Positions 6,572-61,510 of a DNA stretch of 64,000 bases are shown here, piece by piece. Within the stretch, counting starts at the first letter, position 1; every line of letters begins with the position of its first letter. Both the position numbers and the translations under genes were made by a program. The stretch is from Parcubacteria group bacterium Gr01-1014_8. GTDB taxonomy: Bacteria > Patescibacteriota > Minisyncoccia > Phycocordibacterales > UBA2100. The DNA is taken from the NCBI GenBank assembly GCA_007376385.1, contig VMGC01000001.1, positions 128,001 through 192,000 on the forward strand, given 5' to 3'. Under the pieces are notes generated by a model. It ran no database searches and had not been told where the DNA came from. It worked only from the letters and a program-made list of their open reading frames with translations.

Positions 6572-6777
6572 AGAACCCTGCGCCAGAGAACGTAGGGTGT
6601 TAAGAAACGTCTTTCAATGCAGGACCGGGAGACCTTTCCCGGAATAGGAACGACCCGCCGGTCGCACGTATTTGAAAGCGCGTCCATTCATTCTTGCGGT
6701 AAAGCGCAACGTTCTGGATGCGACCAGTAGGAAATTGCGATAGACGTTTCGCGCGCTGCCTGTTATAAGACTAGTAC

Positions 6778-33595: not shown

Positions 33596-36500
33596 ATGGC
33601 CGAACAAAACTCACAAGAAAAGAGCGAGACTGCAAAACGAGAAGAGGAGGTGTTGAAGTTTTGGAAAGAGAACACTATCTTCGAGAAATCGCTCAAAAAG
33701 AGAGCTCCGAAAGGCGAGTTTGTTTTTTATGATGGACCTCCGTTTGCGACTGGCTTGCCGCATACGGGTTCGCTCCTTTCATCCATCATCAAAGATGTCG
33801 TGCCGCGCTATAAAACAATGCGGGGATACGTGGTGCAGAGGCGCTGGGGATGGGATTGCCATGGGCTTCCTATCGAGAGCCTTATCGAAAAACGTCTGAA
33901 CTTAAAGACGAAGAAAGACATCCTTGATATCGGCATCGACACATTCAACGAGGCTGCACGGGCGAGTGTGATGGAATTTGAGCACGAGTGGGAAAAGTAT
34001 GTCGACCGTGTCGGCCGATGGGTCGACTTCAAGAATTCCTACAAAACGATGGATAACTCGTACATCGAGAGCGTATGGTGGGCTTTGAAGCAGTTGTATG
34101 AAAAATCGCTGTTGTATGAAGGCAATAAAGTACTCATGTATTGTCCTCACTGCGAGACGCCGCTTGCGAAAGCGGAGATAGCGATGGACCATACGTACAA
34201 AGACATTACAGAAGAGGCGGTCACTGTCCGGTTCAAGATAAAACGTCCGTCGCGCTACGGACTTCCCGAGAATACTCACTTCCTTGCGTGGACGACAACA
34301 CCGTGGACATTGCCGGGCAACGTCGGTCTTGCAGTCGGTCCTGGCATTAGTTATGTTCTTGTGCCGGAATCCGGCGGGATGGCCATCGTTGCCAAGGATC
34401 GCCTCGACATCTTGAAAAAAAGTGCACGTCCGCGGGTAAGCGTCGACATGGGCAGGGAATATAAAGGTTCGGAGCTTGTCGGGATGGAATATGAGCCTTT
34501 GTATGACGTTGTTTCGGTCATCAGACATGGGGGCAATAAACACGTTGTACTCCCTGCGGATTTTGTGTCGACGGAAGAGGGAACGGGCGTCGTGCACACG
34601 GCAGTGATGTACGGAGAAGATGACTTCGCACTGGGGCAAAAAGAAAATCTGCCCAAAGTGCAACTACTCAATCCGAATGGCACATACAACAAAGAAGCGC
34701 CAGCATTTTTACAAGGAAAATATATCAAGGAAGCAGAGAGAGATATTAAACGCGATCTCGAATCGCGCGGACTCCTTTTTGAACGCGAGAATCATACGCA
34801 CTCATATCCGCATTGCTATCGATGCGGGACGCCATTAATTTACAATGCTGTCGCGTCGTGGTTCATCAATATTCAGAAAGTGAAGGACAAAATGCTTTCA
34901 GAGAACGAAAAAGTACAGTGGGTACCGGAACATCTGAAGCACGGGCGCTTCAAGAATATCGTGGAGAATGCGCCAGATTGGACAATTTCGCGCAATCGCT
35001 TTTGGGCGTCGCCGCTTCCTATCTGGAAAGAGAAGAAAGGGAATCGCGTGATGGTTGTCGGTTCACTCGACGAGATAAAGAAAAAGTCGAAGAAAAGCGG
35101 TAATAAATATTTTGTGATGCGGCATGCGTGGTCAACCGGGAATGAGAATGGCACGCTGAGTTCAGACAAGGATGCGGACATCGGTCTGACAGAGAAAGGG
35201 ATCGCGGACGCTCGCGCATCCCTGCGAGCATTCGGAACGAAAGTGGATATCATCTATACGTCGTCCTTTAAACGAACCCGCGAGACTGCAGATATAGCAG
35301 CGGAGGTGCTTGGCGTGCCAAAGGAACATATCAAATCTGATGATAGATTAGGAGAATGCAATTTTGGTCCATACAGCGGGAAGACGCTTGAGGAGTACCA
35401 CGCGGCATTCCCGGAAAAGGCAGAGCGATTCAGTAAAGGCCCTGAAGGTGGGGAGACGTACGTAGAAATTCGTCGACGTATGATGTCGGTTCTGTCCGAA
35501 TTGGAAAAAAGTGAGAAAGGCAAAAATATCCTTATCATCTCGCACGGCACGCCGCTCTGGCTTCTCTGTGCATCTGCGAGAGGGCTCTCTCGCGAAGAGG
35601 CGCTCTCGACTCGCGAGACGGATTATCCGAAACAAAGTGTTATCACCGAACTCTCGTTCGTACCGCTTCCCTATAACGCCGACTATGAATTGGACCTTCA
35701 TCGACCGTATACGGATTCATTGACGCTCCTCGATGAAGAGGGGCGAGAATACGAACGAATTCCGGAGGTCGTGGACTGCTGGGTCGAGTCCGGCTCCATG
35801 CCCTTTGCGGAACAGCACTATCCATTCGAGAATAAATCGGTATTTGAAAAGAGAGCGCCGGGCGATTTTATCGCTGAATATATAGCTCAAACGAGGACGT
35901 GGTTCTACTATATGCACGCGATGGGCGTTCTCCTATTCGGAAGGCTCGCATTCCGAAATGTTGTTTCGACGGGAACCATTCTTGCGGCAGATTCATCTAA
36001 AATGTCGAAGTCGAAGGGAAACTACACGGACCCTTTGGTTGTTATGGACCGCTATGGCGCGGATGCGTTGCGCTTCTATTTGATGGGAAGCGTCGTGATG
36101 CAGGCAGAGGATCTGAATTTTCGCGATGAGGATGTTCGCGATACGCATAATCGCGTTATGGGGCTTTTGTGGAATACATATAAATTCTATGAGCTCTACA
36201 AAAAAGAATACGAAGGAAAAGCTTTTGCGAAAAGAAGCACGAATTTGTTGGACCAATGGGTCATCGCACGGCTTAATGAAACTGTGCGCACAGTTACAAA
36301 TGCGCTTGATGCGTTCAATATGCCGCCTGCAGCACGGGCCATACGAGATTTCGTTGAAGATTATTCCACGTGGTATGTGCGCCGCTCCAGGGAGCGCGTG
36401 AAGGGTTCTGATAAGGCGGATAAACAATTCGCGCTTGCGACGCAAAGAGAAGTACTGCTCGATGTTGCGAAAATGCTCGCGCCCATTGCTCCTTTCATAG

Positions 36501-37093
36501 CCGAGAGCGTGTACAGAGGTGTAGGAGGAGCGCTTGAAAGCGTGCACTTGGAAGAATGGCCGAGTGGGATTTCAAGAGGATTTTTCTCTCGATTATTTGG
36601 CCGCGACAAGAGCAAAGAATCTTTAGCAAACATGGCAGCGGTGAGAGCTGCCGTATCACGTGCACTTGAAGCTAGAGAGAGGGCACGTATGAAAATACGC
36701 CAGCCGCTCTCGGCATTGATCCTTAACGGTGAACGCTTCCCCATCAAGGAAAGCGGGCTCCTTGATATCATCAAAGAAGAAGTGAACGTGAAGCGTGTTG
36801 ACGTTGGGGACATAACGGACGACGTATGGTTGGATACTGCGCTCACTCCTGAATTGAAGCGAGAAGGCCTCATTCGCGAGGTCTCGAGAACGGGACAGGC
36901 GGAGAGGAAGCTTTTGAAGCTGAGTCCGGAAGACAGGCTTTTCAGGGTCATCGTGCGCGGAACAAACGATACGATCCTCGCTGTTAAGGAACACGAATCA
37001 TACTTGCGGGAATCACTGAAAACCGATGTTTTGATGACCGAAGTAGATGAGTCTGGCAAAGAGCCTATGCGCGTTTCCATCGAGAAAAGATGA
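33596..37093 (+). CDS. ileS: Isoleucyl-tRNA synthetase (type 2), 1165 aa. It carries an internal histidine-phosphatase-like domain of about 200 aa.
   Basis: HIGH-region motifs are PFATGLPHTGS and WDCHGLP. KMSKS is present (KMSKSKGN). The insert at about 35095-35690 (VMRHAWSTGNENG, IYTSSFKRTRETAD, IISHGTPLWLL) lies between IPIWKEKKGNRVMVVGSLDEI and DLHRPYTD. Confidence 0.9.
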   Translation: MAEQNSQEKSETAKREEEVLKFWKENTIFEKSLKKRAPKGEFVFYDGPPFATGLPHTGSLLSSIIKDVVPRYKTMRGYVVQRRWGWDCHGLPIESLIEKRLNLKTKKDILDIGIDTFNEAARASVMEFEHEWEKYVDRVGRWVDFKNSYKTMDNSYIESVWWALKQLYEKSLLYEGNKVLMYCPHCETPLAKAEIAMDHTYKDITEEAVTVRFKIKRPSRYGLPENTHFLAWTTTPWTLPGNVGLAVGPGISYVLVPESGGMAIVAKDRLDILKKSARPRVSVDMGREYKGSELVGMEYEPLYDVVSVIRHGGNKHVVLPADFVSTEEGTGVVHTAVMYGEDDFALGQKENLPKVQLLNPNGTYNKEAPAFLQGKYIKEAERDIKRDLESRGLLFERENHTHSYPHCYRCGTPLIYNAVASWFINIQKVKDKMLSENEKVQWVPEHLKHGRFKNIVENAPDWTISRNRFWASPLPIWKEKKGNRVMVVGSLDEIKKKSKKSGNKYFVMRHAWSTGNENGTLSSDKDADIGLTEKGIADARASLRAFGTKVDIIYTSSFKRTRETADIAAEVLGVPKEHIKSDDRLGECNFGPYSGKTLEEYHAAFPEKAERFSKGPEGGETYVEIRRRMMSVLSELEKSEKGKNILIISHGTPLWLLCASARGLSREEALSTRETDYPKQSVITELSFVPLPYNADYELDLHRPYTDSLTLLDEEGREYERIPEVVDCWVESGSMPFAEQHYPFENKSVFEKRAPGDFIAEYIAQTRTWFYYMHAMGVLLFGRLAFRNVVSTGTILAADSSKMSKSKGNYTDPLVVMDRYGADALRFYLMGSVVMQAEDLNFRDEDVRDTHNRVMGLLWNTYKFYELYKKEYEGKAFAKRSTNLLDQWVIARLNETVRTVTNALDAFNMPPAARAIRDFVEDYSTWYVRRSRERVKGSDKADKQFALATQREVLLDVAKMLAPIAPFIAESVYRGVGGALESVHLEEWPSGISRGFFSRLFGRDKSKESLANMAAVRAAVSRALEARERARMKIRQPLSALILNGERFPIKESGLLDIIKEEVNVKRVDVGDITDDVWLDTALTPELKREGLIREVSRTGQAERKLLKLSPEDRLFRVIVRGTNDTILAVKEHESYLRESLKTDVLMTEVDESGKEPMRVSIEKR

Positions 37094-38365: not shown

Positions 38366-39169
38366 TTAGAGAGACAGTACGTATTGCAGGCGTCGAACGA
38401 GCGCATCATGGATATCGCGAGTGGTGCGAACTTGATTCGTGATCTTGAAATCCACGCCTGTTCGCAAGCGCTCGGAGTAAGAGTTGTGCGTGGCGAGTCG
38501 TTCTGGTGTTGCAACGTAATCGCTCGATGAATGCTGTTTGGCTTCTTGGCCGCAGCGAAGTGCATAGGTATATAGTCGATGTAGCATCTCTGTGCCCTGC
38601 GGGCCGTCGAATTCCCGCAACATTTTTCTCGCTTTGTTCTTGACGAGCTTTTTTTGATCGTCCGTGAGCCACGTGTATCTACTGCCAACTGTATCGGAAG
38701 GAGTGCCCGCGACGTCGATCAAAAATTCAAAATTTCCTGGGATGTCAAAGTTATATATTTGTCCGTCGCTGATGGAATAGTTTTGCAACACGTGAAGGCC
38801 TCTGTCGCCTATGCCAAAGACAACGGCGAGAATAAACATATCTGACTCCGCGACATCTATTTCTGTTGCTGAAGGTTGTCTTTGCCCTCTTTCTGGTGCG
38901 GCCATTGAATAGAAGTTGCCGCGGACTTTGTCATATACTACGGGGCATTGGTTTATGGCTTTCTCGAGAAGCAATGACGTAAAAAATTGTCGTACGGGTT
39001 TGTCGAGCACGAGGTAGAATTTTCTTCCGCTCTCATCTTCAAAAATAGGGTACCCGTAATCTGGTTCATTAGCGATCTTTCGCAGATCCTCACCTTCGAG
39101 AATGGCCCGCGAGTGCGGTATATCATCGGGTGTCGCGTTCGATACTATGTCCTCGTGAGCCATCATCAT
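38366..39169 (-). CDS. Hypothetical protein, divergent from the surface-protein gene.
   Basis: The track ORF runs to 39433. A likely ATG triplet lies at 39163-39169 (MMMAHEDIV...). No confident family was found. Confidence 0.4.
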   Translation of the reverse strand: MMMAHEDIVSNATPDDIPHSRAILEGEDLRKIANEPDYGYPIFEDESGRKFYLVLDKPVRQFFTSLLLEKAINQCPVVYDKVRGNFYSMAAPERGQRQPSATEIDVAESDMFILAVVFGIGDRGLHVLQNYSISDGQIYNFDIPGNFEFLIDVAGTPSDTVGSRYTWLTDDQKKLVKNKARKMLREFDGPQGTEMLHRLYTYALRCGQEAKQHSSSDYVATPERLATHNSYSERLRTGVDFKITNQVRTTRDIHDALVRRLQYVLSL

Positions 39170-39230
39170 ACATCGTGGCAGTAAGTATACTGCCGGCGGG
39201 TACGCGGCACTACGTGGTATTATTTTTGGG

Positions 39231-53182: not shown

Positions 53183-53415
53183 ACGACAGCAAATGATACC
53201 ACGCTCCTCGTCAATTTTTCGTTATTTCATACCCCAGAAAGTATGTTTTGCCTGCATGGTAGCGTTTCGTGATGAGACAAAAAGCAGACGCGATAGGCGC
53301 GGGGAATAATGCGATGGTATAAGGGCTTCTTAGAGCGACATTTCCGGGTCGTCATGGACATCGTAGCTTTGCACGTGTTGCAGCACTCATATGTACGTAC
53401 TTCTCTATTGCTTAA

Positions 53416-54285
53416 TTGGATGTCCCTTATGTATACTTCATCTATATGCCGTCGGATCGACAAGATCCTCAAAAGGAATCTTCAAGGACATCATCTCAAT
53501 CAGAATCAATTCCCGTAACGGACATAAGACAAAGGACAGATATATCCATATTTTTAGACCCTGCATTACGGACAAACCCATTTGGCCATAATATATCTGC
53601 GGAGCATATCTATCGGAGGGCGGAGCGAATTGCAGCTGCGGTTCACTTACTCACGGGACACATGCCAAATGCTGAGCCCGTTCGAGATCTTGCCCGAAAA
53701 GAGAGCATTGCACTTCTCAATCATGCGCTCGGGTTACGCAGTGAATTGCGTGCTGCGGGCTCGGAATCATTCAAGCAGACACAAGCATCAATACGGAAAC
53801 TTATTTCTCTCATAAGACTACTCGGGATTTCTGGATACACATCAGCGCAAAATACAGAAACACTTGTGGATGCTCTCGATGAACTTGGGGCGCTTCTGAC
53901 CTCGTCCCAGCGCTCTCAGCTTGCAGAAGATACGTTCCTTACGCGTGATGAACTTACACCAAGGAGAAGTGAACCGGCTCGAGATTCTCAGACAATATCG
54001 TCACGTTCGTCACAACGTAGAGAGGTGCGCATGAAAGTAAGCGGGGTTTCTATAAAGGACAGACTCATAAGGGACACAGGTGTTGATGGCAGAAGCGCTG
54101 GAGCACGAGCCGAACGAATCGTAGACATCTTGCGCTCTGGGGGGATATTGGGAATCAAGGACATAGCGTCAAATTTGCCTGAATATAGCGAAAAAATGAT
54201 ACAGAGGGAACTTGCCGCATTGGTCGAAAGGAATACGGTCAAGAAACTAGGAGCAAAACGATGGAGTAAATATACACTTCTCTAG
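53416..54285 (+). CDS. Hypothetical protein with a C-terminal winged-helix (DeoR-like) DNA-binding domain.
   Basis: The C-terminus is IVDILRSGGILGIKDIASNLPEYSEKMIQRELAALVERNTVKKLG. The start is uncertain. Confidence 0.4.
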   Translation: MDVPYVYFIYMPSDRQDPQKESSRTSSQSESIPVTDIRQRTDISIFLDPALRTNPFGHNISAEHIYRRAERIAAAVHLLTGHMPNAEPVRDLARKESIALLNHALGLRSELRAAGSESFKQTQASIRKLISLIRLLGISGYTSAQNTETLVDALDELGALLTSSQRSQLAEDTFLTRDELTPRRSEPARDSQTISSRSSQRREVRMKVSGVSIKDRLIRDTGVDGRSAGARAERIVDILRSGGILGIKDIASNLPEYSEKMIQRELAALVERNTVKKLGAKRWSKYTLL

Positions 54286-55047
54286 GCCAATAAACAGCGG
54301 GCTATACGAGGGGAGCGCCCAAAATAACATGCTTTAGAGCGGGATAATGAGCGCACGTTAAATTAGTGCGACCGGAGGGCCGCTTCTATTTCGGGGAGGG
54401 TTCCCCGGTCCTGTGCAGTTGCACAGGGTTCTTTACAGACAAAGCAGATGCTTTTGAAGTAAGAAAGCCGGTTGACTTCGAGGGGGGTCAATTGTATTCT
54501 CAGGCCCGTAGCTAGCGGCCAGGCGCCAATAGGGAATGGTCCGTTTTATCCTCTAGTTATCCACAAAACAGGAAATCACGATTCAACTCGTGCTCTCGTC
54601 CTCATATATAATTGCCAGATGCTTCCTGTGCGTAACAGGTAGGCGTTTCGCAACTGGACGACACCCTGTCTCTGGTTGACTGCTCTTTGACAGAACATAT
54701 AAGGAAAGGAACGGGACACAGGGAATTACCCTATGTTCAGACTAAACTCACATTCATCCGAAAGATGAAAGAAACAACATGCATTGTGCGTCTATGAATA
54801 TAGACCATAAGCGTGCGCATACTGAAATGGCAGAACTTACCCGGATACGGACGAACGAAAGAATTCTGAATTACTTTCTTGGCGCTACCCCCTGATTCTC
54901 TTCTATTAGTAATGAGTCGGGGTTAGCCAATTATTAGTTGTCTGCTTCTGGCAGGCACACACAAATTGCATTCGCGGTTACGTCGAACTTCCGCGCATGC
55001 ATCCAACTCTTCCAATTAGGGAGAGATGGAAAAGGTCAAAATAAACT

Positions 55048-58000
55048 ATGAGTTTAACAACAAAGAATATCGCGACAGTGTTCGTAGGCTTGGGCCTCGT
55101 CCTTGCGCTTTCGTTTGCAGTCGTCACACCGGCGAAAGCAGACATGCTCTCGGATCTTCAGGCACAAGTACAGGCACTGCTCGCACAAATTGCAATGCTT
55201 TCAGGTGGTACAACCACCGGCGGCTCATGCAACACGTTCACGCGTACTCACCAGATGGGTGATTCAGGCGGGGAGGTGATGTGGGTCCAGCAATTCCTTA
55301 ACAGTCATGGTTCCCAGGTATCGGCAACGGGTGCCGGTTCTCCTGGCAATGAATCATCGTACTACGGCGCAAAGACGAAGGCGGCGGTCGCTAAGTGGCA
55401 GGCTGCAAACGGAGTCGCTCCGGCAGCAGGTTACTGGGGTCCGATAACTCGGGCTAAGGCGAACTCGATGTGCGTAAGCACGCCGGGCATACCAGGTGTT
55501 CCGGGCGTCCCAGTGACTGGAAACGGTCTCAAGGTCATGCTCGCATCTGATTCACCGACAAACACAGCGTTGGTCCAGGGACAAGCGATCGCAGAACTTG
55601 CAAAGTTCACGTTCTCGAACCCAACGGGTTCCGAGATCACGGTCACCAACCTCGGCTTCAAGCGTGTTGGCGTGTCGTCTGATTCGACGCTCGCAAACGT
55701 CTACCTCTTCCAGGGGAAGAAGCGCATTACCGATTCCGCTGGAGTCAGTAACACAGCGTTCAACTTCAACGATCCGTCGGGGATCTTCAAGGTACCCGCG
55801 GGTGGCATGGTCACGATCTCTGTCAGCTCGGATATTGCTGCGTCTACGAACGGTCAGCAGGTGGGCGCACAGTTGGTATCGATAGCGTCGTCAGGAGTCC
55901 TCGACTCTTCCGTCGTGCTTCCGATCACCGGCTCGTCGCTCCTCATTTCTTCAGCGACACTCGCGACTGTAGACTTCAACACGACAACGACTCCTGCAGC
56001 GAATACTAACCTGACTCCCCAGAACGATTATCCGCTCTGGCAGAACAACGTCTCGATTGGTACGCGCGCGGTCTGGTTGCAGTCGTTCCAACTTCGTAAC
56101 CTCGGCTCTGTCGGGCTCAACGACATCAGAAACTTCCGTCTCTATGTAGACGGCGTTCAAATCGGTGCGACAATTCCGAACATGTCAGCGGGTGAGGCTT
56201 CCGTTGCATGGGATCTCTCGGCTACCCCGCTCCGTTTGGAAACGGGTACTCGTGTCGTCAAGGTAGTCGCCGACATTGTTGGCGGCTCAAGCCTAACAGC
56301 TCAGCTTTCTCTTCGACGCGCAGCAGACGCTCGTGTCGTCGACACTGAACTTGCTCAGCCTATTCTTGCGACGGCGAATGGAAGTGCATTCTCCGCTCGT
56401 ACGTCAGGTCTGCAGACTATCGGTGCTGCGGCAGTCTCGGTCACGAAGGCGAACACCTCGCAATCGTCGAACGTTGCTGTTGGCGCGTCTAACGTTAAGT
56501 GGGCAACCTTCGAAGTCCGCGCTTCTGGCGAGGACGTGAAGATCGAGTCCCTCGACGTTCAGGCGAATACCTCGCTCGATCGAGGCCTCGACAACGGTAA
56601 AGTGTTCGTCAACGGCGTGCAGGTCGGATCCACCAAGGATCTTACCGACGCGACAGACGTGAACTTTACCTTCGGCTCATCCTTCATCGCGAAGGCGGGC
56701 GCAGTCGAGATCGTCGACATCTATGCTGACGCAAAGTCAACAACGGGTGCGGCATTCTCTGACGCTCATACCGCGGCGATCACGCTCGGCACAGGTTCCT
56801 CGAACGCGTTTGGGCAAGTTTCGCTCAACTCAGTGAACGTTCCTGGCTCCGACGTGACGGCGAACACGGTCACCATCTCGTCTTCAAGCCTCACGGCGAC
56901 GAAGTACTCGGGATATGGTAACCAGACGATGATTGCGGGTACGAACAATGCCCGCCTCGGTTCCTTCACACTCTCATCCGGTTCAACGGAAGGCGTGAAC
57001 GTGAACACCATCGTGGTTGACGTCTCATCCGATGAAGCAGCAACGATCACTGACCTCCGGCTCGTGAATCACGCGACGGGCGCTGCGATCGGCACTGCAA
57101 AAGCGTCACCGTCAACGTCCAACTCGTTCTCGGTGAACGTGAACATCCCGGTTTCGTCGACTCTCACGGTTGACGTCATCGGAAACATCAAGTCTGGCTC
57201 GAACGCAGGTTCGTGGATCGCAGACATTGACACTTCTACTGGTGGAACGGGTCTCTCGACGGGCAACTCCGTCACGATCGGAAGCGACCTCTCGCTCCAG
57301 ACCATCACGGTCGGCTCGGGCTCGATCACGGTCACCAGGGACCCAGGCACGCCAGTTAACTCGAACGTCGTTGCAGGTCTATCCAGCGTACACGTTGGTA
57401 AATTCGACTTCGCAGCGGTAAGCTCTTCGTACACAGTGCAAGAACTCAAGGTCAAGGTTCCGGCTGATGCCGCAACCTCGGTCTCGCAGATCACACTGAA
57501 GTACAAGAACTCTGCAGGTGTTGAACAGACGGTCTCGCAGGCGCTTGCGCTCTCTTCGGGCGCTCTGACGCACGCGACCGCGACGTTCACCGGCCTTACG
57601 TTCTTCGTTCCGGAAAACGATTCAGCTGATATCGATGTCTACGTCGACACGCCGACAATTGCTTCAGGTGGTAAATCTGGCGCAGCTATCTCGGTCTTGC
57701 TCGACGGCGACGAGGGCTTCAAAGCGATCGACTCGTCAGGCGCTTCTGACACGACGCTCGCCGGCTCCTCGACAGACGTCAACTCAGCCGCTTCGACCGG
57801 CTACGGCTCGAAGTACTTGAAGAAGACAGTTCCGACCCTTGCTCGTTTGAGCACTGGCTACACGACAAACACGGTGGCCAACGGTACCGGACTGTTCCGC
57901 TTCACAATGACAGCTGACGCTGCAGGTTCGGTGGACTGGAGAGAGATCTCATTCGAGATCACTACTGCAGGCACCGCGACCGACAGCTACAAGACGTGGA

Positions 58001-58404
58001 CACTCCATGACGTCACAGGCACTGCCGTTCAAGTGAACGACACCGCAGTCGACGTTTCGGGCACCACGATTGCAGTCTGTCCTGGCGTCTCATGCGTAAT
58101 CGGTGAAGCACAGCAGATTGGTGCTGGTTCATCGAAGACGTATGAGCTTCGCTCGGGCGCAGTCACTGGTTGGGGTAGTGCTGGAGACTCAATCAGCATT
58201 AACTTCACTGAGGACTCCAACGATCCTATTACGAACGCAGCCGCATCCAGCCTCCACTCGGGAGATGCCTTTGTCTGGTCTGATCGCTCCGCGAACAGCC
58301 ACACCACGACAACGACTGACTGGACGAACGGTTACCTCGTGAAGGACGTGGACAACGACACTCGCCAGTGTCAGTTCGGAACAGCGACAACCTGTACTCC
58401 GTAA
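55048..58404 (+). CDS. Giant secreted surface (S-layer-like) protein, 1118 aa. It has an N-terminal coiled-coil, a peptidoglycan-binding domain and many beta-repeat domains.
   Basis: The signal peptide is MSLTTKNIATVFVGLGLVLALSFAVVTPAKA. The coiled-coil is LSDLQAQVQALLAQIAML. The PG_binding_1-like region is GDSGGEVMWVQQFLNSHG...GAKTKAAVAKWQAANGVAPAAGYWGPITRA. A long Thr/Ser/Val-rich repeat region follows. Confidence 0.65.
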   Translation: MSLTTKNIATVFVGLGLVLALSFAVVTPAKADMLSDLQAQVQALLAQIAMLSGGTTTGGSCNTFTRTHQMGDSGGEVMWVQQFLNSHGSQVSATGAGSPGNESSYYGAKTKAAVAKWQAANGVAPAAGYWGPITRAKANSMCVSTPGIPGVPGVPVTGNGLKVMLASDSPTNTALVQGQAIAELAKFTFSNPTGSEITVTNLGFKRVGVSSDSTLANVYLFQGKKRITDSAGVSNTAFNFNDPSGIFKVPAGGMVTISVSSDIAASTNGQQVGAQLVSIASSGVLDSSVVLPITGSSLLISSATLATVDFNTTTTPAANTNLTPQNDYPLWQNNVSIGTRAVWLQSFQLRNLGSVGLNDIRNFRLYVDGVQIGATIPNMSAGEASVAWDLSATPLRLETGTRVVKVVADIVGGSSLTAQLSLRRAADARVVDTELAQPILATANGSAFSARTSGLQTIGAAAVSVTKANTSQSSNVAVGASNVKWATFEVRASGEDVKIESLDVQANTSLDRGLDNGKVFVNGVQVGSTKDLTDATDVNFTFGSSFIAKAGAVEIVDIYADAKSTTGAAFSDAHTAAITLGTGSSNAFGQVSLNSVNVPGSDVTANTVTISSSSLTATKYSGYGNQTMIAGTNNARLGSFTLSSGSTEGVNVNTIVVDVSSDEAATITDLRLVNHATGAAIGTAKASPSTSNSFSVNVNIPVSSTLTVDVIGNIKSGSNAGSWIADIDTSTGGTGLSTGNSVTIGSDLSLQTITVGSGSITVTRDPGTPVNSNVVAGLSSVHVGKFDFAAVSSSYTVQELKVKVPADAATSVSQITLKYKNSAGVEQTVSQALALSSGALTHATATFTGLTFFVPENDSADIDVYVDTPTIASGGKSGAAISVLLDGDEGFKAIDSSGASDTTLAGSSTDVNSAASTGYGSKYLKKTVPTLARLSTGYTTNTVANGTGLFRFTMTADAAGSVDWREISFEITTAGTATDSYKTWTLHDVTGTAVQVNDTAVDVSGTTIAVCPGVSCVIGEAQQIGAGSSKTYELRSGAVTGWGSAGDSISINFTEDSNDPITNAAASSLHSGDAFVWSDRSANSHTTTTTDWTNGYLVKDVDNDTRQCQFGTATTCTP

Positions 58405-58593
58405 TGTCCTAACCCTCGGGCACACCTTTCGGCGCTTCACATGAAGTTGCCGGAAGCACAAGCCTCCAGCTGGGGAATTCGGCCCAGCAAAGCAAGCCCT
58501 CGGAGAGAAATCTCCGGGGGTTTTGCTTTTGAAAACCTGTCAGATGCAGCGCGGTTTTTGGTTGCGCGGAAGATGGTGTATACTTTTCTACCT

Positions 58594-59289
58594 ATGGAAA
58601 ATTCGAATAAAAACGTGCGGATCGGCATTATTGTAACGATTATTGCGATCATCGGACTAGGGCTTTGGTATTACTCGCAAAACCAGAATCCGCTTCCCGT
58701 TCAATCGGGAGACTCAATCGAATCGTGGAATTTCCAAGGTTCTTATAACGACGATGGTCCTAATGAGCAAAAAGCGAGAGATGAAATTGCGCGTCTTGAA
58801 GAAGGGCTCAAAGATGCAGAAACAGAGCCGACGGACTACGCGCTTTATGTATCGCTCGCGAACCAGTACACGCTCCTGGGAGACGGAAAAGCGGCGTACG
58901 AGAATCTCGGGCGAGCGGTAGAGATCGATTCAGAGAAAACAGGTATGGCTTGGCATAATATGGGCGCCTTGATGGAACGCCTCGGCGCATTTGAGACGGC
59001 GCGGGTGGCGTATGGAAAGGCTGTTGCCGCACAGCCCCATCTCGATATCTACCACTTGGCGAATCTCGAATTTCTGATGAAGCACTTCCCGGACGATGTA
59101 GAAGCGATCGAAGATGCGTTTGATGCGAGTGAAAAGCAGTTCAACGCTCCTGCGCCGACGCTGCAGTTAAAAATTCAATGGCTCGAAAGTGTGGGAAGAG
59201 CGGATGAAGCGGAAAACTTGAGGGGCCAGATGAAAGCTGCCCCAGAAACAAGTGGCGAGCCAGAGAGCAATGTGATAACTGTCGAGTAA
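58594..59289 (+). CDS. TM-anchored TPR-repeat protein.
   Basis: An alternative start lies at 58573. The TM segment is IGIIVTIIAIIGLGLWYY. TPR-like helices follow (YVSLANQYTLLGDGKAAYENLGRAVEID). Confidence 0.5.
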   Translation: MENSNKNVRIGIIVTIIAIIGLGLWYYSQNQNPLPVQSGDSIESWNFQGSYNDDGPNEQKARDEIARLEEGLKDAETEPTDYALYVSLANQYTLLGDGKAAYENLGRAVEIDSEKTGMAWHNMGALMERLGAFETARVAYGKAVAAQPHLDIYHLANLEFLMKHFPDDVEAIEDAFDASEKQFNAPAPTLQLKIQWLESVGRADEAENLRGQMKAAPETSGEPESNVITVE

Positions 59290-59290
59290 T

Positions 59291-61510
59291 ATGGGGCGAG
59301 GCGTAGAGCGGATGGTGTCGTGGATGTTGCTACTTCCAGCGGCGCTTCCTCTTATCTACATTAGCGGGCTTTTGTACCCGTACGTTGCGCCGAAGACGCT
59401 CCTACTCCGTTCACTCGCCATCGTCTTAGCCGCGCTTTTCGCTTTTCTTATCCTCTCAAATCGGCCGCTCTATTGGCAGAGGCTGCGGCAGAAAGGCACG
59501 TGGCTTCCCAGCGCACTTCTCGTCGTCGCGTATGTCACGTCGTACTTTGGGATCGATTTCTACCACAGCTTCTGGTCAATCTTTGATCGCGGCGATGGGC
59601 TACTAACCCTTACCGCGCTCGCCCTGTTTTTCTACGGCACGCTTTTGTACGCGGATGCGCCCCTCTTTCGGCGTCTCCACGTTTTTGTCGTGTGGACTGC
59701 ATCGCTCGTCGCCCTGTATGCGCTCCTGCAATGGCTGCAGGCGGCGCTCGGAGTCGATCTGCCCCTCATTTCAGAGCCGCGTGGCAGGTTTGGCTCCACG
59801 TTCGGGAATGCTGCGTACCTCGCGAGCTATCTGGGGCTCACGCTCTTTCTCACGATCGGACTCCTTTGCGAAAACTTTGGGCCGCGTGACGTTACAAGGA
59901 GAAATGCGCTATACATTGGTCTCGCACTCCACATTCTCGCGATACTACTCGCCGCGACGCGCGGCACGTTGCTTGCGCTCGCATTCGTATCTGCCCTCAC
60001 GCTTCTGTATTTCTCGTGGCTGGGCAGCGGGCGGATACGGATCTACTCGCGAGCTGCAATCGCCATCGGACTTGTTGCCGCCGGTTTATTTTTCATGTTC
60101 CGCGCGCAGTTTGCACAGGTGCCAATAGAATTCGTGAGCCGCGTGGCGACGATTTCTTTACGCGATGCGACGGTTGAGAGCCGCCTGTTTATCTGGCGCA
60201 ACATGATCACCGAAAGCCTGCATAGTCCGTTTATGGGATACGGCGCAGAGCATATCGATGTTTTGTTCAATCGCTTCTATGATCCGGTGGCGATTGTCGA
60301 GCAATGGTTCGATCGCTCGCACAACGCGTTCTTTGATTATCTTATCCAGTATGGTTTTGCCGGCCTTCTGCTCTATGTAGGTCTCATCGTGTCGTTTGGC
60401 TACACAGCATATAGGCGATTTGTGCGCGGGGACAAGAACGCGGGTCTCTTAATTCTACTTGCGATTACGTATGCGATTCAAAATGTCTTTGTGTTTGACA
60501 CCGCCTCGACGCTCTGGCTTTTCCTTATATTGTTCGCAGGAATGTTTATTTCTGATCAACGGGCGACGGGGTCTCAGCGCATCCCGAGATTGCCTCGCTA
60601 CACTCCAGCTGCGATCTCGCTGTCTATACTTGTACTTCTCTTTCCTGTTTCAATCCAGCCTCTTCGCGCTAATCTGTATCTCGCGGAAGGATACCTCTAT
60701 CATGTCGTAGATATCGATCGAGCTACCGCCGCGTTAGAGAAGGGGCTCGCGCTCGGCACATATGCTGATCTTGAATATGGGTACCAGGAATATCAAATGT
60801 ATATTGAGCAGCAGCAAACTATGCTTGAGGGGGATAATCGCGTTAAAGCATATCGATTTGCGGTAAACACACTTGGCAATAATGCCGATAGGTATCCGTA
60901 CGACGCGCGTACGCTTACGTATCTTGGGCACGTCTTGAACGACGTGCCGCCCGAGATAGAGGCAAACGAAGATGAGGTGCGCCACGTGCTCGCGCGTGCG
61001 ATAGAGCTGACGCCAAAGAGATTGCAGCCGTGGTACCTCTTAGCGAACGTCGACATAAAGAAAGCGGACGCCATGTCTCCCGGGAAAGCTCGCGATGAAC
61101 TGTACTTGAGGGGGATAGAAACGCTTAAGGAATATGCTGTTGTCGTGCCGAATTCCGCGGAGCCGCGCTTCATCATTGCGACTTTGTATCAGGTAGTGGG
61201 CGATCGCGACGAGGCTAGAAAGTGGGCAGACGAAGGGCTGCCGCTGTATAAGCGGGATCATAATGTTGCAAAACGTGCAGCACGGTACTACGTAACGGCA
61301 GAAGATTGGGGGAATGCACGCTTCTTTTTGCAAGAGCTTACCGAAATTGATTCGAGCGACTATGAAGTCATGTACGATCTTGCCAAAGCCGAATTTCTAA
61401 ACGGCAACGTCGAAGAAGCAGTGCGCATCGTCGAAAGGCTGCGTGTCGATTCCCCCGGCCTTGTCGAAACCGACCCCGCATTTTTGTCCGCTTTAGAGGG
61501 AGGGGAGTGA
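59291..61510 (+). CDS. O-antigen ligase (Wzy_C) family membrane protein with a C-terminal TPR domain.
   Basis: At least 10 TM helices are present. The Wzy_C motif is RSHNAFFDYLIQYGFAGLLLYVGLIV. C-terminal TPR repeats follow. Confidence 0.7.
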   Translation: MGRGVERMVSWMLLLPAALPLIYISGLLYPYVAPKTLLLRSLAIVLAALFAFLILSNRPLYWQRLRQKGTWLPSALLVVAYVTSYFGIDFYHSFWSIFDRGDGLLTLTALALFFYGTLLYADAPLFRRLHVFVVWTASLVALYALLQWLQAALGVDLPLISEPRGRFGSTFGNAAYLASYLGLTLFLTIGLLCENFGPRDVTRRNALYIGLALHILAILLAATRGTLLALAFVSALTLLYFSWLGSGRIRIYSRAAIAIGLVAAGLFFMFRAQFAQVPIEFVSRVATISLRDATVESRLFIWRNMITESLHSPFMGYGAEHIDVLFNRFYDPVAIVEQWFDRSHNAFFDYLIQYGFAGLLLYVGLIVSFGYTAYRRFVRGDKNAGLLILLAITYAIQNVFVFDTASTLWLFLILFAGMFISDQRATGSQRIPRLPRYTPAAISLSILVLLFPVSIQPLRANLYLAEGYLYHVVDIDRATAALEKGLALGTYADLEYGYQEYQMYIEQQQTMLEGDNRVKAYRFAVNTLGNNADRYPYDARTLTYLGHVLNDVPPEIEANEDEVRHVLARAIELTPKRLQPWYLLANVDIKKADAMSPGKARDELYLRGIETLKEYAVVVPNSAEPRFIIATLYQVVGDRDEARKWADEGLPLYKRDHNVAKRAARYYVTAEDWGNARFFLQELTEIDSSDYEVMYDLAKAEFLNGNVEEAVRIVERLRVDSPGLVETDPAFLSALEGGE

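Follow-up and report, generated by a model that had tools for sequence, protein, structure and literature searches.

A promoter and a putative ~540-nt structured 5' leader conserved in front of a giant surface-protein-like gene of Kaiserbacteria

We have analysed a 64-kb stretch of DNA from Parcubacteria group bacterium Gr01-1014_8 (the window, within which all locus genes and coordinates are numbered), and in particular a gap without open reading frames (ORFs) that precedes the gene of a giant, putative cell-surface protein and that probably contains a promoter and a long structured 5' leader for this gene. The gap (54286-55047, 762 nt) lies between the stop codon of a gene that we call up289 (54285) and the ATG of the giant gene (55048). 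Its largest ORF has 56 aa and the public gene calls for the same genome leave it empty. No other gap in a crude ORF map of the window is as long (the next one has 542 nt), in agreement with the original prediction, which had pointed to 760 bp free of ORFs as the longest non-coding stretch. On the plus strand the order is up289, the gap, a PG_binding_1 protein of 1118 aa (the giant protein), a TPR protein and a Wzy_C/TPR protein, and the neighbours on the minus strand are recA, a gene for a Glucodextran_B-domain protein and ftsK. The plus strand of the whole gap is more stably folded than shuffled sequences (z = -6.4, from only 20 shuffles), with a value of -4.35 for the minus strand. A search of the whole window with Rfam 15 at gathering score returned six tRNAs only.

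The gap is a constant feature of this locus. Scanning one genome per species yielded 72 loci, nearly all of them labelled Kaiserbacteria or Paceibacteria; some carry other labels (uncultured Saccharibacteria, Nomurabacteria) and are probably mislabelled records. The order recA-ftsK-up289-gap-giant gene is conserved among these relatives, with up289 immediately upstream of the leader in all loci, and the gap measures 571-904 nt (median 667.5) in 64 of the 64 Kaiserbacteria loci that hold both flanking genes. In an alignment of 65 sequences, conservation begins abruptly at a TTGACT (54472) and extends to the ATG. When the six-frame segments of 65 gaps were compared no conserved small ORF was detected; the similarities appeared only in several frames at once, which indicates conservation at the nucleotide level, and a conserved small ORF or a pseudogene in the gap was discarded on these grounds.

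The same arrangement is found in metagenomes. The pattern of the 5' domain, GTTATCCACAAA-N36-44-TATATAATTG, is present in 118 metagenome stretches, and almost all of those with enough flanking sequence have up289 upstream and the giant gene 430-720 nt downstream. R1, the covariance model of the 3' domain that is described below, matches 80 of the first 100 of these stretches on the same strand, and synteny with up289 extends to the 72 genome loci and about 100 metagenome loci. The exceptions to the pattern come from a low-GC organism (dnaA/rpmH), one mraZ promoter and one site within an ORF; none of them has the 3' domain and we consider them unrelated, generic combinations of a DnaA box and a -10 element. 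In the low-GC organism (L109, L113, L130 and L131), the rpmH promoter (TTGACT-17-TATAAT) is immediately preceded by two TTATCCACA boxes, in the interval that separates dnaA from rpmH-rnpA-yidC, a textbook origin region that matches the search pattern by chance. Two contigs of a single metagenome-assembled genome (JACRFK01; L025 and L069) each carry a full up289-leader-giant locus, which may reflect either a mixture of strains in the bin or a real duplication. Our literature searches found no described RNA motif or S-layer leader of Kaiserbacteria or of the Candidate Phyla Radiation (CPR).

The conserved part opens with a promoter, P1 (54472-54500, plus strand), identified in a promoter scan, with the -35 element TTGACT (54472-54477), a spacer of 17 nt and the -10 element TATTCT (54495-54500), from which transcription is predicted to start at about 54507. 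Across 30 aligned species TTGAC is invariant, and the -10 element is invariant only at T-12, A-11 and T-7 (TAnnnT). An invariant first T, A and last T is the recognition signature of a sigma70-type -10 element. The P1 segment is not thermodynamically structured (mean z = -0.85), a value that leaves a hairpin in its spacer unsupported as an RNA element. We also inspected the start regions of 31 genes of the window: TAnnnT ends exactly at -7 in 7 and at -7 to -9 in 10 of them, and a Shine-Dalgarno-like motif precedes only 3 of the 31, which suggests that leaderless mRNAs are widespread in this Parcubacteria genome. As most window genes look leaderless, a leader of ~540 nt would be exceptional.

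Three further blocks downstream of P1 resemble DNA signals. The first is a perfect DnaA-box consensus, TTATCCACA (54557-54565, plus strand), contained in GUUAUCCACAAAA and the sole perfect DnaA box in the 64 kb; its TTAT half is also the 3' arm of stem H1 (see below). Its columns are invariant, yet six species carry TTATCCCCA instead, with correlated changes downstream. The second is the TATAAT block (54603-54614, plus strand; TATAAT at 54607-54612), which reads GTATATAATTG in most species and CATATATAATTG in the window, is near-invariant (58 of 60 sequences) and follows the DnaA-box consensus at 50-53 nt in all species. It has no conserved -35 element in the aligned species, and it could be either the -10 element of a second promoter that lacks a -35 or a single-stranded RNA motif. 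A second promoter here is possible because -10-only promoters and leaderless mRNAs seem to be common in this genome, and its transcript would also start with a hairpin (H5). A leaderless mini-ORF after TATAAT was discarded since about half of the species lack the ATG. The third block, CUCUUUGACA...AUAAGGAAAGG (54683-54709, plus strand), has an invariant G.TC..TGA.A, is predicted to be single-stranded and includes a TTGACA (54687-54692), which we rejected as the -35 of a third promoter given that there is no consistent -10 element 17 nt downstream.

The region that follows P1 shows the marks of a conserved RNA structure. With plain MAFFT alignments, in which the variable hairpins are misaligned, RNAalifold returned partial structures or none, and it was replaced by anchored sub-alignments, structures voted from the minimum free energy (MFE) folds of each species and covariance models. 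MFE z-scores, calculated per species in 31 species, lie between -2 and -3.8 for the structured segments and are stronger on the plus strand. Stem H1 (54508-54515 paired with 54553-54560, plus strand), in which GUAGCUAG pairs with CUAGUUAU, starts 1-2 nt after the predicted transcription start and encloses H2, a GC hairpin followed by a U-run near 54547. In 60 species 82% of the alignment cells of H1 are paired, many of them as G-U, and for the pair set H1 plus H3 the value is 77% vs 37-44% in controls with slid partners; the mean z of the segment 54508-54560 is -3.8 for the plus and -1.95 for the minus strand. Hairpins H5 (54613-54652) and H6 (54653-54676), also on the plus strand, are present in the MFE folds of every species examined (z = -2.8), and in an alignment fitted to a second model, R2, 70% of their cells are paired, with 81 double-change cells vs 39.5 in shuffles. 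Next to the third conserved block lies a variable middle (54710-54855, plus strand; mean z = -2.1), formed by species-specific hairpins (54710-54825) and a moderately conserved linker.

R1, the covariance model of the 3' domain (54856-55052, plus strand), has 207 positions and 50 pairs, with a structure taken from per-species MFE votes, and matches the window with 125.8 bits (E = 2e-32). The domain comprises the helices S1 (54884-54892/54919-54927), S2 (54894-54898/54914-54918), S3 (54940-54956), S4 (54968-55000) and S5 (55003-55029), with a junction AAUUAUUAGUU (54929-54939) before S3, and ends with a Shine-Dalgarno-like AAAGG (55031-55035) before the ATG at 55048. The loop of S4 is CGUCGAA (54981-54987), of which the core GUCGAA is invariant. 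In a plain and almost gap-free MAFFT alignment of 64 sequences, which is independent of the model, all 14 pairs of S4 show compensatory changes, with 153 double-change cells vs 57 in shuffles (none of 500 shuffles reached 153), and 79.7% of the cells are paired vs 30-57% when the partners are slid. In the model-fitted R1 alignment 87.7% of the cells are paired, 39 of the 50 pairs are compensatory, and there are 567 double-change cells vs 181 in shuffles; the covariation score is 0.477 vs 0.19 in shuffles and 0.06-0.11 in slid controls. Furthermore, the paired positions point to the plus strand, with 328 G-U and U-G cells vs 68 A-C and C-A cells (79 vs 37 in the MAFFT-only hairpin alignment). 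Each of 66 genome loci contains exactly one strong R1 match, which is on the plus strand, scores 57-165 bits and invariably stops at the ATG of the giant gene; minus-strand matches do not exceed 24 bits, and 835 kb of sequence yielded no second copy. The 80 metagenome loci with a match likewise have a single copy each, in the same position relative to the giant gene. The last hairpin is followed by ACAAAGGUCAAAAyAAACU-AUG. As this stretch is A-rich in all aligned species and never a U-run, nothing separates the RNA from the coding sequence.

Some species have expansions of 100-250 nt between GCUAGCAA and AUUAUUAGUU; in about half of the species (e.g. L044, L013, L019, L030 and L065) an expansion of this size is located in the AAAUUAUUAGUU junction of the 3' domain, between GCTAGCAA and ATTATTAGTT, and its flanking motif is partly duplicated (AAATTATTG...CGATTATCAGTT). 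In about 40% of the species, the window not among them, the S2 loop is GCGUCGACA and could pair with the S4 loop CGUCGAAAG, a possible kissing contact in these relatives for which covariation is uninformative, both sides being invariant. As read directly from the sequence, the invariant UUUGAC at 54686-54691 is complementary to the invariant GUCAAA at 55035-55040, beside the ribosome-binding site, and the two may form a long-range contact.

As for the flanking genes, up289 (53446-54285, plus strand; a 279/289-aa gene) encodes 279 aa from its ATG. Family searches found no family above threshold for this protein, and its homologues give sub-threshold matches to the Pfam families bAvd and HTH_DeoR. 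The AlphaFold (AF2) model has two domains, both with a confidence score (pLDDT) above 90. Residues 50-161 are modelled as a four-helix bundle like those of Avd and of the S23-ribosomal-protein family (Foldseek matches in the PDB to 2gsc, 8ub7 and 4dwl, TM ~0.8), and residues 217-278 as a C-terminal winged helix similar to Z-alpha or ArsR/SmtB, a predicted fold that is consistent with nucleic-acid binding. To the best of our knowledge, this pairing of an Avd-like bundle with a winged helix has not been described. The giant gene (55048-58404, plus strand) encodes a secreted protein of 1118 aa with an N-terminal hydrophobic signal sequence, a PG_binding_1 domain (Pfam, E = 5.6e-8) and a body rich in Ser, Thr, Ala and Gly. 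No S-layer family was matched in Pfam or NCBIfam, and we describe it as a putative cell-surface or S-layer-like protein. Directly after it, at 58441-61510 on the plus strand, lie genes for a TPR protein and for a protein with Wzy_C (O-antigen-ligase-like) and TPR domains; a Wzy_C neighbour of a Ser/Thr-rich protein would fit O-glycosylation of the giant protein.

All these data suggest, with a probability that we put at about 0.65, that 54472-55047 consists of a promoter and a structured, cis-acting 5' leader of ~540 nt that controls the stability or the translation of the giant surface-protein mRNA. At the level of the sequence, the element lies between P1 and the start codon, on the coding strand and with no terminator in between, and its secondary structure is conserved on the sense strand, as covariation, the excess of G-U over A-C and the asymmetry of the strand scores indicate. 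The original prediction had offered a long structured 5' untranslated region of an S-layer gene as its second option. The conserved promoter, the lack of a terminator before the ATG and the covarying plus-strand helices in more than 60 species support the long leader; the S-layer identity of the gene, in turn, is only inferred. Comparison with related genomes, one of the checks then proposed, did reveal a conserved structure, located in 54472-55047, a part of the gap that had not been singled out. As judged by covariance models, the predicted leader is conserved across the uncultured Kaiserbacteria and outside all catalogued RNA families.

From the sequence we infer that the region is transcribed, where its transcript begins, that it has a stabilising or regulatory role and that it has a protein partner. 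According to this proposal, the sigma70-type P1 would start transcription near 54507, and the transcript would carry a leader of ~540 nt with at least 10 helices, of which H1-H6 would make up the 5' domain and S1-S5 the 3' domain, on either side of a variable middle; it would end in an open, A-rich ribosome-binding region (AAAGGUCAAAAUAAACU-AUG). A stem 1-2 nt after the predicted 5' end, together with densely packed helices, could protect a heavily used mRNA from decay that depends on the 5' end. Moreover, several blocks are conserved while predicted to be unpaired or in loops (GUUAUCCACAAAA, UAUAUAAUUG, UUUGACA...AAUAAGGA, AAAUUAUUAGUU and CGUCGAAAG), and they may be docking sites for a regulator of stability or translation. 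The best candidate for this regulator would be the Avd-like/winged-helix protein encoded just upstream, since up289 always lies beside the leader and its product is therefore the obvious protein to consider as a partner that binds the DNA or the RNA.

Some observations weigh against this proposal. The 5' end, the read-through of H2 and its U-run and the continuity into the coding sequence are predictions, and both the S-layer identity and the high expression of the giant gene are assumed. The R1 and R2 alignments are model-fitted and lean towards structure, the covariation of H5 and H6 is weak on plain MAFFT, and one divergent genome (L061) has no R1 match at E<=1. The GAC/GUC helix that adjoins the Shine-Dalgarno-like AAAGG has only 3 bp and shows almost no covariation. 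A riboswitch would need an expression platform, either a ligand-dependent terminator or a helix that sequesters the Shine-Dalgarno sequence; apart from this short helix, the sequence upstream of the ATG is free of terminators and includes the UUUGAC/GUCAAA complementarity, for which covariation is uninformative because its two sides are invariant. In addition, mere stabilisation does not obviously require 540 nt. Finally, the invariant blocks TATAAT, TTGACA and the DnaA-box consensus look like DNA signals and there is only weak structure from TTATCC to TATAAT (z = -0.8), so that some of the conservation may concern the DNA itself.

Taken further, this last point leads to the first alternative, which we consider possible, if rather unlikely: conservation would act mainly on DNA, as a complex promoter (P1 and a -10-only P2 at TATAAT) with protein sites, RNA structure being secondary. 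The sites would be the DnaA box, ~50 bp upstream of TATAAT (~-59 from the predicted P2 start), and an operator for the winged helix that the neighbouring up289 possesses. Apart from the weak structure just mentioned, the P1 signature, the fixed spacing of 50-53 bp between an invariant TTATCCACA and an invariant, perfect TATAAT, the apparently usual -10-only promoters of this genome and the occurrence of a DnaA box with TATATAATTG at real promoters of unrelated bacteria (e.g. rpmH and mraZ) all favour it. However, DNA sites do not explain the compensatory changes, the asymmetry of G-U over A-C or why conserved helices continue for 330 nt beyond TATAAT; the DnaA box itself contributes its TTAT half to the covarying stem H1, and the species with TTATCCCCA show their correlated changes downstream. 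This explanation can hold for some of the blocks alongside the leader model.

We regard as improbable that the region contains one or two free-standing noncoding RNA genes, either a short RNA from P1 to H2 and its U-run, or a large processed RNA that acts in trans or as a ribonucleoprotein with the Avd-like protein. H2 does resemble an intrinsic terminator, its GC stem lying between an A-tract and a U-run, the latter conserved in most species, but in H1 the 5' end is paired with sequence beyond this run, which implies that the functional RNA extends past it. In the same way, the loops and junctions are far more conserved than a passive stabiliser needs, and the always adjacent protein has the Avd fold, known from an RNA-protein complex; against a separate large RNA, there is neither a terminator nor a U-run between the 3' domain and the ATG, the R1 match always ends at the start codon, and the element is never found apart from the giant gene in 1.4 Mb of loci.

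The perfect, invariant DnaA-box consensus and the AT-rich block nearby would point to an origin of replication or a site for the titration of DnaA, but this is very improbable, as the 64 kb contain a single perfect box, boxes with up to one mismatch are at chance level (11 vs 10.1 expected), the GC skew is positive throughout the window without a change of sign, neither dnaA nor dnaN was detected among the 29 window ORFs scanned with Pfam, and the conservation is strand-specific and RNA-like.

The part of the gap upstream of P1 is of a different nature, and it is here that the first option of the original prediction, an RNase P RNA, has to be considered. The strings on which it was based are all present (GATAATGAGCGCAC at 54343-54356, CCTGTGCAGTTGCACAGG at 54410-54427 and AGAAAGCCGGTT at 54462-54473, the last overlapping the -35 box of P1), and all these motifs fall in a lineage-specific spacer (54286-54471, plus strand) that has no alignable counterpart in relatives; none of the motifs or hairpins is conserved there. 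In the closest relatives the stop codon of up289 is only ~48-52 nt before the conserved TTGACT. Positions ~54346-54438, including the GC hairpins and the RNase P-like GAGCGCAC...GTGCGAC, are one of two copies of a ~95-nt repeat, with the second copy inverted at ~6590-6680 and 75% identical. The repeat is absent from all other loci analysed and has been seen in this genome only. Each copy is GC-rich, hairpin-forming and located just after the end of a gene, and the element is possibly a small dispersed repeat or else a module for termination in both directions. Within the copy in the spacer, the palindrome 54410-54427 is followed by a T-rich tail (54429-54434), and the two together look like a terminator for up289.

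That the gap encodes RNase P RNA or another housekeeping RNA (tmRNA, signal recognition particle RNA or 6S RNA) is hardly credible, since the likeness to bacterial RNase P RNA comes down to a few short strings (GATAATGAGCGCAC and AGAAAGCCGGTT) and GC-rich hairpins in non-conserved, repeat-derived DNA and in a -35 box, and the RNase P models (RF00010/RF00011), which encode the P4 helix and the conserved regions, find no such signature in the window at gathering score, in the gap at E<=10 or in five relatives. The permissive scan (54100-55200, E<=10) returned three chance-level matches, none of them to RNase P, tmRNA, signal recognition particle RNA or 6S RNA; five homologous loci gave no match at E<=0.1, and beyond the chance-level matches no Rfam 15 family was matched by its covariance model in the gap or in these loci. 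The RNase P-like cues thus appear to be chance strings inside a small dispersed repeat.

Two other regions of the window deserve a mention. The second-longest ORF-poor stretch (38689-39230, 542 nt) lies upstream of a DUF11 surface-protein-like gene with a leaderless-type start signature, and is overlapped by a minus-strand ORF of 355 aa without a Pfam match. At 33596-37093, on the plus strand, there is an isoleucyl-tRNA synthetase-like protein of 1165 aa with a His_Phos_1 (histidine-phosphatase) domain (residues 506-670, E = 8e-35) within the synthetase core.

Returning to the leader, a lineage with tiny and apparently largely leaderless genomes would spend ~540 nt on a single conserved and intricately folded leader, in front of its largest surface-protein gene and next to the gene of a conserved protein whose predicted fold is of a nucleic-acid-binding kind. 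To our knowledge, almost nothing is known about gene regulation in the CPR and very few regulatory RNAs have been described in it. If confirmed, the leader would constitute a new RNA family for Rfam, and it would offer a handle on the control of the envelope in uncultured cells and a natural high-expression cassette for future genetics there. A bolder proposal, and one that we put forward only tentatively, is that the leader belongs to a class of large regulatory RNAs that is new, restricted to Kaiserbacteria and responsive to a protein or a ligand. The RNA and the up289 protein would then form a dedicated switch that sets how much of the main surface protein is made, and the DnaA box within the leader could tie this switch to the replication initiator.

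Several known systems resemble parts of this locus. In diversity-generating retroelements, Avd is found together with a structured TR/Sp RNA, a reverse transcriptase and a surface-protein target, and here the gene of an Avd-like protein also lies beside a structured RNA and a surface-protein gene. However, the locus differs from them in the extra winged helix of up289 and in the lack of the remaining components, and we rejected such a retroelement, as no RVT (reverse transcriptase) family was detected among the 29 Pfam-scanned ORFs of the window and there is no template/variable repeat pair, with no direct repeats of at least 30 nt in 53200-58500. The large RNAs OLE, GOLLD, HEARO, ROOL and raiA (Rfam) share with the leader a length of several hundred nt, many helices with covariation and a narrow phylogenetic range; none of their covariance models matches here and they are mostly free-standing, whereas this RNA is fused to a coding sequence.

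The cell-wall protein operon of Brevibacillus brevis has a tandem-promoter region, and in both systems a surface-protein gene is preceded by a long region that holds two or more promoter-like elements (here P1 and possibly the TATAAT block). In our case only P1 has both hexamers, and most of the conserved sequence is downstream of both elements and covaries as RNA. Other precedents are the 5' leaders of S-layer and outer-membrane protein genes, such as slpA in Lactobacillus and Thermus and ompA in Escherichia coli, which stabilise their mRNAs. The likeness includes the position between promoter and start codon, the gene of an abundant envelope protein (here a presumed one), a stem-loop at or near the 5' end (here a predicted one), the absence of a terminator and an open ribosome-binding region. 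Those leaders are ~100-200 nt long, have one to three hairpins and, outside close relatives, show little conservation of sequence, whereas the one described in this work has ~540 nt, at least 10 helices, invariant motifs in loops and junctions and optional expansions of 100-250 nt, and is conserved across a whole candidate lineage, in a genome that otherwise looks largely leaderless. In its size, its many helices, the invariance of its loops and junctions and the constant presence of up289 beside it, the leader exceeds these precedents, which suggests an additional layer of regulation.

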